A stretch of DNA of 64,000 bases, from sequence record OZ346189.1; one strand, written 5' to 3'. The notes under the pieces are model-generated. The model saw nothing but the letters and a program-made list of their open reading frames with translations. It had not been told where the DNA came from and searched no databases. The translations under genes and the position numbers were made by a program. Source of the stretch: a phage. Shown here one piece after another: positions 1,429 through 40,503 of the stretch (the stretch's first letter is position 1; each line of letters begins with the position of its first letter).

Positions 1429-3500
1429 TGGCAACAGCTGTTTTTAAACCTTACCGTGATTACTCTACAATGGCTGCACAGTTTCATTACCGCACAGTTC
1501 AGGATACTGCCGTTCCTGGTAGAGATTATGATCATGTTGAGGGCGATGTAACTATCCCAGTTGGGGCAACCAGTATTGAGATCCCAGTGGAAATTGTTGA
1601 CAAATTACCCAACAGGTTGCCAAGAAGCTTCTTTATGGAGTTTTCATCAAAATCTCAAGGAGTGATGATTGGAACACAAAGGGCGAAATGTACAATAGTT
1701 TCAGATGAGAATCTTGACAGGATATCTTGGGATACTGTTGAGGAGAGAATGTTTCACCCAAGATATTGGGTTACAACCACTCAGCAGACTGAAAGTACCT
1801 GTATTGTTGCAGATAACAACTGTTGTATTAACCGTTTAGTGTCAAGAACATATGGAGGTATGGCTGGGTGCATTTGGGAAACAGTTGACAAGTATGACCA
1901 TTTCGGTATTGGGTTTGATGATCACTATGAGATGAGAAACACCAAGCTTTGGTTCAGAATGTCAATAACCAACGCCAGCAACTTCTCCACTCCTGAAAAG
2001 ATGATTATGACTGTAGACCTTGTTGATGGCACAATCATCTATGTTCCTTTAGCTCAATATGCTGTCAGCATCTCAGAGGATAAAAATGTTGCAGAAATTC
2101 ATATTGATTTTGAGGACTGCGTCGGGATGGACCAGAACAACAACATGATGGGTGTTGATCCTCGGCAGGTGAGAAGGATTTTAATACCACTTATGCCTAA
2201 AGACTGGGTAAGTAATAGCACAGATCCAAGAACGGAAAATGTAGAGTGTGAGTTGCGCCTAGATCTGCTTCAGCCAGACACAGGCTGGAAAATGATGCAA
2301 CTTAATAATATCCAGGTGAGAGAGCACGACGTTGGGATCTGCACCGCATATGACGATATGTGGAACGTGTCCCCTTTAAGGGTGTTGAACAATATCAAGC
2401 GTCTGGGCTATACCGGAACCATAAACCATTATGTTGGTATGAGTCATTATTATGACTACACATGGTCAGGAACCCAATGGTCTATAAACAGAACAGGAGC
2501 GCTAAACGCTGCAGCTTATAAATGGCATGATGATTTTATGTACAATGCCAAACGACATAACTTCGACGTTATGCAATCTGTAAGTTTTGAGCTTTTCAGC
2601 GATGCCTGCCCGTTGGAATGGACCCAAAGAGACTGGAACGATAACTACGCTAAAACAGGGTATACACCTTGTAGCTACCTCCTGTCTCCAACCATTGAAG
2701 AGGGTATGAATTTCCTTACTGCAGTATTTAAGAATTTTGCATCAGCCGCTATGAGAAACAACCTGCCAGTGATTATGCAGGTTGGTGAACCGTGGTGGTG
2801 GTACAATACCGATACTCGTAGACCTTGTATTTATGATTACCCTACAAAACAGGCGTTTTATGATGAGACAGGCGAGTATGCATTAGATATTGGGACTATT
2901 GACGATCCTAAAACTGGCGGTGTTTACGATAAGTATGTAGCATTTTGTCGTGGTAAGCTTGGCGCTCGTATTGCTGCTATTTCAAAGGCAATAAAGGCAC
3001 ACGCTGCATCAGCTCAGATGACAGCTCTGCTGTTTTTCCCAACCATTATGGAAACCGAGCTTACGCAAAAGCTTAACCTTGCTGACCAATATAAAAAGGA
3101 AGCAGGTGCTCTTGATTTCTTCTGCACCGAGTGCTACGATTGGGTGATGCAGGGAGGTATTGAAAAGGCAAAAGAGTCTGTAAACATACCTATCGTTAAG
3201 TTAGGTTGGCAACCGTCTGAAATACAATACCTTGCAGGGTTCGTTCCTAGTAAAGAGCTTGCTCCGGTATATGGTTACGACCCAACTAGGAATTACCAAG
3301 AATTTTTATGGAGATGTATTTGCGGAAACATGGCAACTATAGAGTATAGATACCCTGAGGTAAAACAGTATGTGTGGGCATACCCGCAAGTAATGTCTGA
3401 CAGCATCACTGTTACCGCTAGAGATTCTACCGTGCTTCATATGGGGCAGGTTGCTCTGAAAGGGTATGTAGAAGATGTTGTCCCGCCAGACTTCTCATAA
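1428..3500 (+). CDS. large tail/baseplate-associated protein
   Basis: 690-aa ORF; ATG overlaps the upstream stop (taATGg), typical translational coupling in late operons. Confidence 0.55.
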   Translation: MATAVFKPYRDYSTMAAQFHYRTVQDTAVPGRDYDHVEGDVTIPVGATSIEIPVEIVDKLPNRLPRSFFMEFSSKSQGVMIGTQRAKCTIVSDENLDRISWDTVEERMFHPRYWVTTTQQTESTCIVADNNCCINRLVSRTYGGMAGCIWETVDKYDHFGIGFDDHYEMRNTKLWFRMSITNASNFSTPEKMIMTVDLVDGTIIYVPLAQYAVSISEDKNVAEIHIDFEDCVGMDQNNNMMGVDPRQVRRILIPLMPKDWVSNSTDPRTENVECELRLDLLQPDTGWKMMQLNNIQVREHDVGICTAYDDMWNVSPLRVLNNIKRLGYTGTINHYVGMSHYYDYTWSGTQWSINRTGALNAAAYKWHDDFMYNAKRHNFDVMQSVSFELFSDACPLEWTQRDWNDNYAKTGYTPCSYLLSPTIEEGMNFLTAVFKNFASAAMRNNLPVIMQVGEPWWWYNTDTRRPCIYDYPTKQAFYDETGEYALDIGTIDDPKTGGVYDKYVAFCRGKLGARIAAISKAIKAHAASAQMTALLFFPTIMETELTQKLNLADQYKKEAGALDFFCTECYDWVMQGGIEKAKESVNIPIVKLGWQPSEIQYLAGFVPSKELAPVYGYDPTRNYQEFLWRCICGNMATIEYRYPEVKQYVWAYPQVMSDSITVTARDSTVLHMGQVALKGYVEDVVPPDFS

Positions 3501-36480: not shown

Positions 36481-39400
36481 ATGAGTATGTGGAATTTTGA
36501 CTTTGAGGCCTCAGGTCTTCTGGACGAGGAAGATCTTTACTACCATTGTGGCCTGTTTAAAGAGTTGAATAAAAATAATTTTATGTTGTTTTTGCCTATC
36601 AATGATAGATCTCATTACAGTGAAGAGGAGGTTGAAAAAGCAAAACAATTTATGCTGGCAAAGCAAGATATCTATCCTAGCTGCTCTGTCCGTATTGCGG
36701 ATTTCAGCCAGCTTGAATGGTGGTTAACCGGGAACTCCGATTGGTCACCCACATCATTAAGTTGTCACAACTGTTTTAGTTATGACTTTATCTTGATGGA
36801 GAAGCTGTCTGGTATTCATTTTGATATGTTCCGTGATCCCAAGTGTATGGGGACAATCAATAATCATCAGGTGAACCTGTTCGACACTCTGCCAATGAGT
36901 CGTATACTATGGCCCGACAGACCGTTACCTAAAGGATGCCCTGATTCTGTATACAATCCTGTTACAAAACGTATGCAGCAGGTAGGTCCTCATGGCCTAA
37001 TGGCGTGGGGGTACGCTTTAGGAAACCAGAAGGTTAAAATTGATGACTGGAGAAATTTACCTCTGTGGAAGTATGTTGATCGTGTATTCGAGGACGTTAT
37101 CATCCAGGAGCTGCTCTGGAAAGAGCTGGTAGCGGAATCAAAAGGTGTATTCTACGGCAAATCTGACATGCAGAACTTTATGTACGATCCAGCCAAAGAG
37201 AAGCCGAAAGGGTTCAAGAAGATTACCTGGAAGAATGCATTACGCCGAGGCATGCTGCAGCACTTCCTGATGGAGCTGCAGGCCCGTCAGGGTGTATACT
37301 TCGACATAGATGGAGCTATTGCTTTACGTGACCGTTGCGATGCGTGGATGAAAGAAATCGCTGATCGTGTTGAACCACAACTACCTTTAAAAGAGCTGTC
37401 AATGTCTCAGCGGCCCAAGTTCCCTGAAAAGCCGTTTAACCAAGACGGGACAATCTCTAATAATGGTTGGAAATGGTTAAAAGATAAGCTTGGCTATCCT
37501 GTAGACATGAGTGCTTTAGAGTTCAAAGCCCCGCCTAAGCGAGCATTTACCTCTACAGGAGATGTCAGCAAGATGGGGATAAAATGGTGTGAAGAGATGG
37601 GCTGCAAAGACCCCGATAAGATGGCTGATTTCTTGAGAGGCTATATTAAGGGCACCTCCACACCACAACCCTTACCTAAAGAGCTGATGGATCAGGCAAT
37701 AAGTGATCTGCAGCAGAAGCGAATGCCTGACTGCAAGATACCTATGAAAATCAGCAATCAGGACGACATCAAGCGATACCTAATCAGTGCTGGTTGGCTC
37801 CCAACAATGTGGAGAACTAAAGATGTAACTAAAGACAGCAAGAAGAAAGCTTTACCTGATGCAGATGTTGATGCACGAGTATATGCATATATGGACGAGC
37901 TTTTGGAGTCAGAGTATTGTGACCTAATTATCAACTTCTGGAACAAAACTGATGCTAAGTTCCAGACAACCGTGCACAAGTTCCGAAGCTTTCCTAACTC
38001 CGAAAGGATTAAAAAGGAAGTATTCGGGAAAATACGTAGAAAAGCCAGGGCACTTATTACTTCTCCGCAACTGAAAGATACGTTTGGACACCTATGCCCA
38101 AATCTTGAAAAATTGAACGGAGAGATGGCTAAAGATATCGTCTTGTGGTTATCATTGCGAAACCGCAGATCGGTCCTTGATCCAATCAAGGAGGATAAGG
38201 TTGATACTGGTCTTCTTAATCACCCACGTTTGAAGATTGACCATAAGCTTCCTGCTAAAAGCTCTGGATTAACAAACACTTCCAGACAGAAACACAGTAT
38301 TTGTGCAAACATGCCTAAACCATCTCCTAAAGTGGTTATGGGTAAAGAGATGCGTAGTCTGTGGGGTGTTCCTCCGGGATACTTTGAGATCGGTATTGAC
38401 GGGTCCAACTTAGAGCAGCTTATCGGGGCTTGGGGTGCCTTTGAGTTCGACAACGGCCTGTATTATGATGTTGTAAGTAATGGCGATGCACACTGTTATT
38501 CAGGAGATACACAAATTCTCACGGAGAAAGGGTGGGTGAGGTTTGAAGATCTTGATCCGGGAACACAAGTGTTCCAGTACGATCACAACACCTCGTCAAT
38601 GAACCTTGTTACTCCATTAAATTACGTTAAGCGTAGTTATTGTGGGGATATGTATCATTTCCACAACAGTAGTGTGGATTTTATGGTTACAGATCAACAC
38701 AGGATGCTGACTGTGGATCACAGAAGCAATAAATTGTTTGAAGATTTGGCAAAAGACCTGAAAGCAGGTAAAGGGTCTAATTCAGGAAGAAGGTTTATCC
38801 ATGCGGCAGAGTTTTATGGGAATACAACCTTATCTCCTGCCCAGGTTAATTTGCTTATTGCTATTCACGATGATGGGCACTTGCATACAAATAAGGACGG
38901 CAGCATCGTGTGCAGGATTCAGGTCGGAAAGGGAAGAAAAGTTGCAACGCTTTTAGATACTTTTTCTGCTCTAAGCCTTAGTTATGTAGAGCAGAGCGGG
39001 AAAACCACAAAAGGGGGCTTACTGGCGAGAAGGTTCCAATTCCACGTTCCGTCCTGGGTATTTGAGTTTTTGGACAACAATAAGGATTTCACCTATAACC
39101 TGATGAACCTTGATAAAGAATCTAAAAACCTGTTTATAGCTTCTTTATCTAACTGGGACGGGTGGGTATCTTCCGAAGGTGGAAAGGTTGCTTACTACTC
39201 CCAGGCCGAGTGCAGGAAGAAATCTGTAGAGGTGGTGTCTGCGCTGGCTACTCAGTGTGGTTTACGGAATAATACGGTGGCGATTCACAAAAAAGGTCGT
39301 GCCGTGCAGCACAGAATCACAATTGGTAGCAAACAGAGAGCAGGGTTGCTGACACTATCTAAAGAGTCTGTCGAGGTGAGCGGTTCTTTGGTTTATTGCG

Positions 39401-40503
39401 TTACCGTCCCTTCTGGAGCAATCATTGTGAGAAGGAATGGTAAAGTGGCAGTGTGCGGTAACTGTAATAACGCCAAAGCTTACTCTTCTGTAGCAGGCAA
39501 GGAGATTTCCCGTAACGATGGTAAACCTATCACGTATGGGGTTATGTATGGGGCACAAAAAGATAAAGTTGCAGATATGCTGGACATCTCCCCAGAGTTG
39601 GGACAAAGGGTAATCGATGCACTCTGGGATGCCAACCCAGGTCTTAAGGGGCGCAAAGAGGATCTGGAGAAATTCTGGGAAGCAACAGGTAAGAAGTTTA
39701 TCTACTCTTTTGATGGTCATGCTATCTGGACCCGATCTAAACACTCTTTACTTAATGCATACCAACAAAATGGCGGTGCATCGTTGTGTGACTTAGTTGG
39801 AATACTCATGCACCACCAGATGGTGAAGCGTGGGTGGTACGATGAAGGTGTTCGTCGTATTATTTATTACCATAAATAACATTGTGGCTTCATAGAGTAA
39901 TCTATGTCGAATAACCTCTTTAACTGCGGGAAGCCTAAACCTTATGGCAAGGTAATCCGCAACGAAGCGCTCAAAAGAGCGAACGCTCAGAGGCCATTCC
40001 GAAAGGAAGTAGACCAGCAAGTGCGGTCGAAATGGGAGGATTCCTGTGGTTGCTTATCATAGGAATATGAGATGGTCCGATCCTACGTGAAAACGTATGG
40101 CTATGCACGTAATGGTGCGGGGTAGCTTAACGACCTACCTGAACTATTGGATGAGTACCAACTTCAAGTGCCTGACACACCGAAGTATAAGACTGTGTAC
40201 ACCTTCGACACAATTGAAGAACTGGAAGCATTTAAGGCAGAGCAGGAAGCCAAACTTCATGTGTTCGACGGTCATAAGTACAAAAAGGCACGCAAGGATG
40301 AGGACGGAAACGAAGTGGTTGACAGAGACGGAAACACGGTGTACGATCCTATCCTGAACGATGACGGAAAGCTTGAACTTATCTGGAGCCCTGTGGGTGA
40401 AATGGTGGTACATTGCTTCTGGCAAGCTTCTAAAATGATGGGAGTCCCGTTCCAGATCACAGGTGAATACTTGTGTGGTCGTAATTGGGGTAATTGTCAC
40501 TAA
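36481..40503 (+). CDS. DNA polymerase, family A (T7-like), interrupted by an intein and a putative group I intron; exons 36481..39873 and 40150..40503
   Basis: Exo motif FDFEASGL; motif A region GIDGSNLEQL...NGDAH; post-intein AKAYSSVAG...ITYGVMYGA; exon 1 ends ...IIYYH; exon 2 starts DEYQLQV and ends RNWGNCH, like the T7 PNWAICH terminus. Confidence 0.75.
38494..39462 (+). mobile_element. intein (323 aa) with LAGLIDADG-type homing endonuclease domain, in the polymerase motif A region
   Basis: in-frame insertion between NGDAH and CNNAKAY; starts CYSGDTQIL, ends VAVCGN with +1 Cys; internal LLIAIHDDGHL and FIASLSNWDGW motifs. Confidence 0.65.
39874..40149 (+). ncRNA. putative ORF-less group I intron splitting the polymerase HDE motif C
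   Basis: exon 1 ends in U (39873), element ends in G (40149); intron GUGG (nt 11-14) pairs with exon CCAU (P1, U-G at splice site) and intron CAUU (nt 7-10) pairs with exon-2 GAUG (P10); in-frame stops exclude an intein. Confidence 0.55.

Follow-up and report, generated by a model that had tools for sequence, protein, structure and literature searches.

A compact group I intron predicted within the catalytic His-Asp-Glu codons of a phage family A DNA polymerase gene

A 64,000-nucleotide stretch of phage DNA (OZ346189.1; hereafter the window) was examined in the present study, following an initial annotation which proposed that the HDE motif of its family A DNA polymerase gene is split by an ORF-less group I intron. 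Our analysis indicates that positions 39874..40149 are very probably such an intron, whose splicing would restore one full-length polymerase. An Rfam covariance-model match, natural alleles in which the element is absent, covariation among homologues and alignment with the T7 enzyme all agree with this proposal, the exception being helix P7, which had been drawn with the wrong 5' strand. The intron is not new, the same sequence having already been annotated in public phage genomes, and it is an ordinary one.

The interrupted polymerase gene and the limits of the insert

The polymerase locus (36481..40503) was matched by megablast to more than 130 phage records, representing Vequintavirus (rV5-like) E. 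coli myophages with 90-99% identity. Both of the ORFs described in the initial annotation are present and share a reading frame; the first (36481..39879) has the C-terminal end ...RRIIYYHK-stop, and the second (40147..40503) reads (M)DEYQLQV...RNWGNCH. The final two codons of exon 1, UAC CAU, specify the Tyr-His of motif C. When the C-terminal part of the protein from a relative with an uninterrupted gene was compared with T7 DNA polymerase (E 1.4e-13), IYYHDEYQL aligned with T7 AWVHDEIQV (residues 650-658), placing the restored HDE on T7 H653-D654-E655. The interrupted motif is therefore family A motif C, which bears out the claim that the HDE motif itself is split. The Pfam model DNA_pol_A scored a sub-threshold 18 bits on exon 1, and the polymerase assignment is therefore based on the T7 alignment together with the annotation of relatives. 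A separate, intein-like insert is present in exon 1 of the same gene (38494..39462).

Excision in silico of 39874..40149 produces a single ORF of 1248 codons containing ...IIYYHDEYQLQV..., and hence the YHDE that exact removal of 276 nt had been claimed to restore. The same configuration is found in nature. In a distant blastn search with the region, relatives span exactly 600 nt of the 876 nt query, and the three that were aligned (naswa, rV5_ev158 and B9-1) are without exactly these 276 nt, their junction reading ...UAUUACCAU|GACGAAUAUCAG and their polymerase being annotated as one CDS in each case. This alignment with intron-less homologues, suggested as a check in the initial annotation, thus yields the limits of the insert directly, and the boundaries are unique because no alternative placement reproduces the CAU (His) codon. 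A 90 nt query spanning the joined exons recovered the uninterrupted junction in 50 phage records, while matches to records with the intron are interrupted at position 45|46 of the query, which is the junction. The exon ends in U and the intron in G (U39873 and G40149), as initially stated, and this terminal G directly precedes GAU/GAC GAR in all 17 family members examined. The coordinates of all features are collected in Table 1.

Table 1 Predicted features of the interrupted polymerase gene and of the intron RNA, in window coordinates
Feature	Position	Strand	Basis or detail
Exon 1, family A (T7-like) DNA polymerase	36481..39873	+	ORF list; T7 alignment; annotation of relatives
Probable group I intron, IA2-like, 276 nt, no endonuclease ORF	39874..40149	+	RF00028; intron-less alleles; covariation
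P1	39870..39887	+	CCAU (39870-73) and AA (39874-75) with UUGUGG (39882-87); Rfam alignment
P2 hairpin, CAUAG/CUAUG	39891..39906	+	Double changes in 5/5 pairs; 100% of cells paired
P3 5' strand, CCUCUU	39915..39920	+	Partner GGGAGG (40034-40039); double changes in 4/6 pairs; 100% of cells paired
P4 (39925-30 / 39956-61) around P5 (39933-36 / 39950-53)	39925..39961	+	Rfam alignment; MFE fold
P6 (39963-64 / 39984-85) and P6a, CGCUC-AAAA-GAGCG (39968-81)	39963..39985	+	Alignment
P7 5' strand, GGCCA	39992..39996	+	Pairs with UGGUC (40073-40077); Rfam consensus position agrees
P7.1, UUCC-GAAA-GGAA (39997-40008); GUA (40009-11); P7.2, GACC/GGUC (40012-15 / 40025-28)	39997..40028	+	
P8 hairpin, UUCCUGUGGU / AUCAUAGGAA	40041..40065	+	Double changes in 5/6 counted pairs
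P7 3' strand, UGGUC	40073..40077	+	Pairs with GGCCA (39992-39996)
P9 (40082-88 / 40093-40100, GAAA loop), P9.1 (40104-08 / 40115-19), P9.2 (40121-25 / 40135-39)	40082..40139	+	Also predicted by RNAalifold
Terminal G (omega-G), 3' splice site	40149	+	Sequence
Exon 2	40150..40503	+	Starts GAU GAG (Asp-Glu, motif C); ends ...RNWGNCH-stop

Fold of the intron RNA and rival explanations

The covariance-model search, likewise put forward in the initial annotation, matched positions 39864..40099 to the group I intron model RF00028 over its entire length (model positions 1-253 of 253) and scored 64.7 bits, the gathering threshold being 50 bits (E 4e-14). This was the sole Rfam match across the 64 kb window, and a search of the intron-less alleles of naswa, rV5_ev158 and B9-1 with RF00028 gave no match. 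Relative to the model, the alignment has 34 nt extra between the 5' strand of P7 and the 3' strand of P3.

The Rfam model makes the same P1 pairing as had been proposed by eye, with the U39873-G39884 wobble marking the 5' splice site. P1 is invariant in 14/14 homologues and appears in the RNAalifold prediction and in the minimum free energy (MFE) fold as well; owing to this invariance, its support comes from conservation, not covariation. The in-frame UAA at 39877-79 (intron nt 4-6) sits in the P1 loop. Pairing of CAUU (39880-83) with GAUG of exon 2, which the initial annotation had raised as a possible P10, is complete at 4 bp in 10/14 family members, the three Vibrio copies of K412 type forming 3 bp and SPA01 forming 2 bp. 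Compensatory changes are absent from all 14 copies, and a real exon alignment by P10 is accordingly plausible, though not demonstrated.

Support for the remaining helices was assessed with 14 diverged introns from the same site, each extended by 8 nt of exon on either side and with ORF loops cut from P6a. The CB7 and Salmonella 6S introns were excluded from this alignment, as their ORFs are placed elsewhere and their 5' halves are not simply alignable. Helices were modelled from the Rfam alignment and by inspection, and the model was tested on a plain MAFFT alignment whose register is off at P4/P5 and in parts of P6a, so that support is under-counted there. Across the 14 introns, 94.2% of cells were paired in the model compared to 33-40% when the 3' partners were slid by 1-3 columns, compensatory double changes were found in 34 of the 62 pairs, and the observed covariation score was reached by none of 500 column shuffles. 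RNAalifold independently recovered P1, P2, P3, P6, P6a, P7.2, P8, P9, P9.1 and P9.2, and the single-sequence MFE fold contains the same helices (z = -2.6 versus shuffles).

Taken helix by helix, P3, P6a, P7 and P8 have 95-100% of cells paired and show compensatory changes, including three compensatory pairs in P6a relative to the JLBYU08-type copy, and the 3'-terminal hairpins have double changes in 5/7 (P9), 2/5 (P9.1) and 4/5 (P9.2) pairs. P4/P5 contains a G-C to U-A swap in the CR9, SSE121, A5-4 and SPA01 copies, its counts being weaker as a bulged nucleotide in many copies shifts the MAFFT register. An outer GCUA/UAGC stem was considered for P9.1 and ruled out, the alignment showing a separate covarying hairpin, P9.2 (GGUAG/CUACC). 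RNAalifold also joined GUCCG (40075-79) to UUGGA in a helix spanning the 3' splice site, which we regard as an artefact since the program cannot draw pseudoknots and the helix is invariant and conflicts with P7.

The initial annotation differs from the present model at P7, for which it had paired GACCA with UGGUC. The fourth pair of that helix is broken in 12/14 homologues and there is no covariation in its favour; the GACC in question belongs to P7.2, and GACCA lies at 40012-40016 rather than at 40013-40017 as given. GACCA is thereby ruled out as the 5' strand, and GGCCA pairs with UGGUC in 14/14 introns, with U-A in ten of them at a pair that is C-G in the window, SSE121, SPA01 and VnaP. P7 makes a pseudoknot with P3, and is the helix expected to bind guanosine. 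P7.2 has double changes in 2/4 pairs with 95% of cells paired, and the sequence GUAG is invariant in the intron alignment. The joining of P7.1 and P7.2 by GUA is a hallmark of subgroup IA2 (PMC3428280), and as this hallmark is the single basis of the subgroup assignment, we refer to the intron as IA2-like.

On the reading as an intron, the gene would be transcribed as a single unit, and the intron would fold into a P1-P9.2 core. Free guanosine bound in P7 would attack the phosphodiester bond 3' of U39873, positioned by the U-G wobble of P1, and the 3'-OH of exon 1 would then attack after G40149, with the short P10 possibly aligning exon 2. The joined exons would read ...UAC CAU|GAU GAG..., restoring the catalytic His-Asp-Glu in one full-length polymerase with the junction peptide IIYYHDEYQLQVPDTPK. 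On unspliced RNA, the UAA at intron nt 4-6 may halt ribosomes ahead of the ribozyme core. For the copy in the window, splicing itself, the effect ascribed to this stop codon and the way of spreading discussed below are inferred.

Of the rival explanations, the one that survives best is still very unlikely: a splicing-dead intron remnant, with a polymerase made of two non-covalent polypeptides, residues 1-1132 ending in YYHK and a 118-aa C-terminal piece. Phage intervening sequences do sometimes stay unspliced, as does the HNH element CB7_245, which is retained in the mRNA (PMC7344957), and the mobE-split NrdA of Aeromonas phage Aeh1, cited in the same paper, is described as a non-covalent assembly and is a precedent for a two-piece polymerase. 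Two separate polymerase CDSs are also given in the rV5 RefSeq record, and the TTG at 40147 could in principle serve as a start for exon 2. Against a remnant, every core helix is intact and has been maintained by compensatory changes in different genera, implying that the RNA fold is under selection; the sequence is 100% conserved among phages with about 4% divergence in the flanking exons; and the homologous CB7 intron splices (PMC7344957). Two polypeptides would, in addition, have His cut off from Asp-Glu within the catalytic motif, and there is no Shine-Dalgarno-like run directly upstream of 40147 (CCUACCUGAACUAUUG). An intein or other in-frame element removed post-translationally would suit a length of 276 nt (a multiple of three), an insertion in a catalytic motif, where inteins typically reside, and a gene with a further intein-like insert (38494..39462), but is refuted by the four in-frame stops in the element, of which UAA at 39877-79 is the earliest and on account of which the initial annotation had correctly set an intein aside; the insert moreover has no Hint/intein similarity by Pfam and matches the group I intron model. 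That this match is a chance resemblance in a spacer between two independent genes, in favour of which there is nothing beyond the two genes shown in some annotations, is already refuted by its E value of 4e-14, by the covariation and by excision rebuilding a gene that is uninterrupted in 50 records.

Distribution, endonuclease content and spread of the intron family

The evidence thus favours a spliced group I intron, and all genera of Vequintavirinae that were sampled, as well as phages outside this group, have a related intron at the H|DE site. Vequintavirus itself has three forms, namely the 276 nt form of the window, an ORF-less form of ~329 nt and a form of ~843 nt with an HNH gene. The site is also occupied in Certrevirus (CR9 and CB7), in Seunavirus (SSE121 and a Salmonella phage with a LAGLIDADG gene), in Avunavirus 18-1-2, in the Vibrio phages K412, 424E50-1, 10AMN and VnaP, and in the Pseudomonas Pakpunavirus SPA01. 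Introns of the family start with AA(A/G)..., contain the guide UUGUGG and end in G before GA(U/C) GA(A/G), and the 5' exon always ends in UACCAU. In the phage collection, the 50 intron-less records compare with 24 containing the 276 nt form (at least 95% identity) and 31 containing the HNH of the long form (at least 90% identity). Close relatives thus differ in whether one exact position is empty or filled, and phages of distant hosts have an intron at that position too.

The intron is confirmed as ORF-less with respect to an endonuclease. Its only ORF, of 52 aa (39904..40062), overlaps P3-P8 and has no Pfam match, and a tblastn search of the window with five endonucleases of sister introns (HNH and LAGLIDADG) found nothing, all hits having E > 0.4. 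With collaborative homing in mind, free-standing homing endonucleases were sought near the gene, and none was detected by Pfam in ten neighbouring ORFs, a method that can miss diverged ones. The corresponding intron form of FFH2, SophiaRose and Mangalyan has a 168-aa HNH gene in the P6a loop, the ORF occupying roughly 500 nt. FFH2, CR9 and Pseudomonas SPA01 have HNH proteins that share 48-55% identity and belong to a large phage family of HNH homing endonucleases.

As it has no homing endonuclease gene, the intron cannot home by itself. Its persistence is probably due to vertical descent, to recombination between co-infecting relatives, or to homing in trans by the HNH enzyme of the longer sister intron at this site. 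Two observations bear on a possible co-conversion footprint in the flanking exons. The window and LL12 have zero differences across 39820-40178, their flanks being ~4% divergent, and the third base of the first exon 2 codon is U in 16/17 intron-bearing alleles versus C in 3/3 intron-less ones. Both fit recent lateral spread, and could equally reflect selection on the RNA and on P10. A more speculative possibility, which we hold to be rather unlikely, is that the intron is kept as protection for the phage, the split target being immune to the sister-intron HNH enzyme in co-infection, and is perhaps copied in trans into intron-less genomes; this would account for 276 nt that are 100% identical despite flanks diverging by ~4%.

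Two consequences follow for the use of these genomes. Many Vequintavirus records, including the rV5 RefSeq, split the polymerase into two genes and list spurious small ORFs; the gene should be annotated as one spliced CDS. The alleles also form a natural series at one homing site in the HDE codons, empty, filled by a minimal ORF-less intron, or filled by introns encoding an HNH or LAGLIDADG enzyme, in several genera and hosts. The series is conceptually nothing new, and could be used for studying how introns are gained, how endonucleases are lost and how introns mediate competition between co-infecting phages.

Comparison with known copies and related introns

The copies in rV5 (NC_011041) and LL12 (MH491969) are identical to that of the window over 276/276 nt and have the same splice junctions, and the region in MaxTheCat (MZ501094) is 100% identical over 876 nt. 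The polymerase gene of the window has the same intron as in these three phages, and differs in its additional intein-like insert and in a diverged 5' 600 nt. The LL12 polymerase gene has been stated to be disrupted by a predicted intron (PMC6658697), and in the record the gene is a joined CDS bearing the remark 'intron-interrupted gene; intron splice site predicted based on homology'. MaxTheCat is recorded with a two-piece joined CDS, comparative annotation having been used to find intron boundaries in the BASEL paper (PMC8594841). The intron annotations of both phages are based on homology. In the rV5 paper only terminase introns are discussed (PMC3606486), and the rV5 RefSeq gives the polymerase as two CDSs with small ORFs between them and the intron unannotated. 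Our literature search on the 276 nt copy found no published structure model and no demonstration of splicing.

A system with such a demonstration is the homologous intron of the Certrevirus CB7, for which splicing in vivo was established by RT-PCR and Sanger sequencing (PMC7344957). The CB7 intron holds CB7_50, located between CB7_51 and CB7_49. It shares with the window intron the insertion site (…IIYYH|DEYQLE…), the first 14 nt, the internal guide and a homologous 3' half, but is 687 nt long and has a 127-aa HNH ORF at a different place in the 5' half. Over the alignable parts, the two introns are ~75% identical.

In E. coli Pol I, motif C consists of H881-D882-E883. The T7-like phages PhiI and W31 are reported to have self-splicing IA2 introns at site 881 of this enzyme, each with an HNH ORF (PMC3428280). 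In the numbering convention of that paper, site 674 lies between Pro and Asn; applied to H881-D882-E883, this convention makes site 881 His|Asp, as in the window, and we read the PhiI and W31 introns as being at the same position as the window intron. Their HNH ORF is reported to lie in P6a, where the FFH2-type sister intron also has its HNH gene, whereas the copy in the window is without an ORF. No T7-like phage was among the blastn matches of the window intron at E <= 1e-3.

The T4 td, nrdB and sunY introns are the classical IA2 examples with P7.1 and P7.2, and resemble the window family in interrupting genes of nucleotide or DNA metabolism and in presence/absence polymorphism; they differ in that their host genes are other than polymerase and in having GIY-YIG or HNH ORFs, intact or defunct. 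The PolA introns of SPO1, SP82, Bastille and Pf-WMP3 (the last of subgroup IA2), associated with I-HmuI, I-HmuII, I-BasI and I-PfoP3I, respectively, are group I introns that, like the window family, interrupt conserved functional motifs and are associated with HNH enzymes (PMC3428280; PMC11878797). Unlike the window intron, they are inserted at site 674 in E. coli numbering, in the fingers subdomain rather than in motif C, and all contain an endonuclease ORF (PMC3428280).

An intein-like insert in the polymerase gene

Besides the group I intron, the family A DNA polymerase gene carries a second intervening element, a long in-frame insert that begins with Cys, ends with Asn and is followed by Cys (CYSGDTQILT...VAVCGN, then Cys). 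The insert replaces the Gln of DAH|QNNA, inside the polymerase stretch aligned to T7 NGDIHTKN, and is spanned by only seven of 134 related records. Its N-terminus matches the solved intein AceL NrdHF-1-1 (6zgq; E 1.8e-4) and, weakly, Hint_2 and intein_Nterm. These sequence features indicate that the insert is very probably an intein, and the polymerase gene would therefore hold an intein and an intron together.

Features of the polymerase locus (window coordinates)
Feature	Position	Strand	Size
Divergent start of polymerase gene	36481..37080		~600 nt
Intein-like insert, in frame	38494..39462	+	323 aa
Substitution cluster relative to rV5	39463..39549		87 nt
Group I intron	39874..40149		276 nt
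Region corresponding to rV5 gp222 and gp221	39904..40357		

Immediately downstream of the insert, 21 substitutions relative to rV5 are clustered within 87 nt, and the 800 nt beyond them show no difference from rV5; the cluster resembles a tract of co-conversion, or else a homing site for the putative intein that has been recoded. The start of the gene is only 68–79% identical to rV5 and to Escherichia phage LL12, with an identity of 93–100% across the remainder, which suggests that the N-terminal module of the polymerase may have been swapped.

Annotation of related phages

The RefSeq entry of rV5 (NC_011041) gives each half of the polymerase a gene of its own and places two hypothetical proteins, gp222 and gp221 (positions 2956–3409 of the rV5 locus compared), within and across the intron. 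Both the hypothetical proteins and the split polymerase genes are annotation artefacts. Approximately 15 GenBank records (MG0656xx) labelled as 'Campylobacter phage', with C. jejuni as host, are 92–100% identical to E. coli Vequintaviruses at the polymerase locus, and their host label looks doubtful.

Mosaic structure of the intron and related introns

Rfam identifies a single group I intron in the window. Judged by its sequence in a comparison with three loci (L007, L008 and L014, the last being Vibrio phage VnaP), this intron is a mosaic. Nucleotides 1–50 and 135–276 share 85–100% identity with the FFH2/JLBYU08-type intron, the P4–P7.1 middle is unlike that type, and P5 is similar to its VnaP counterpart. 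Nucleotides 8–148 are also 73% identical to a segment of the terminase large subunit gene of the rV5-like phage Av-05 (KM190144.1, 120740–120872), and the known terminase intron of the rV5-like group is therefore a paralogue. The VnaP polymerase gene, annotated in pieces as separate genes ('DNA polymerase II', 'III', 'IV' and so on), contains two group I introns (371–591 and 965–1185 of the VnaP locus, L014; 85 and 61 bits, respectively), of which only the second occupies the H|DE site.
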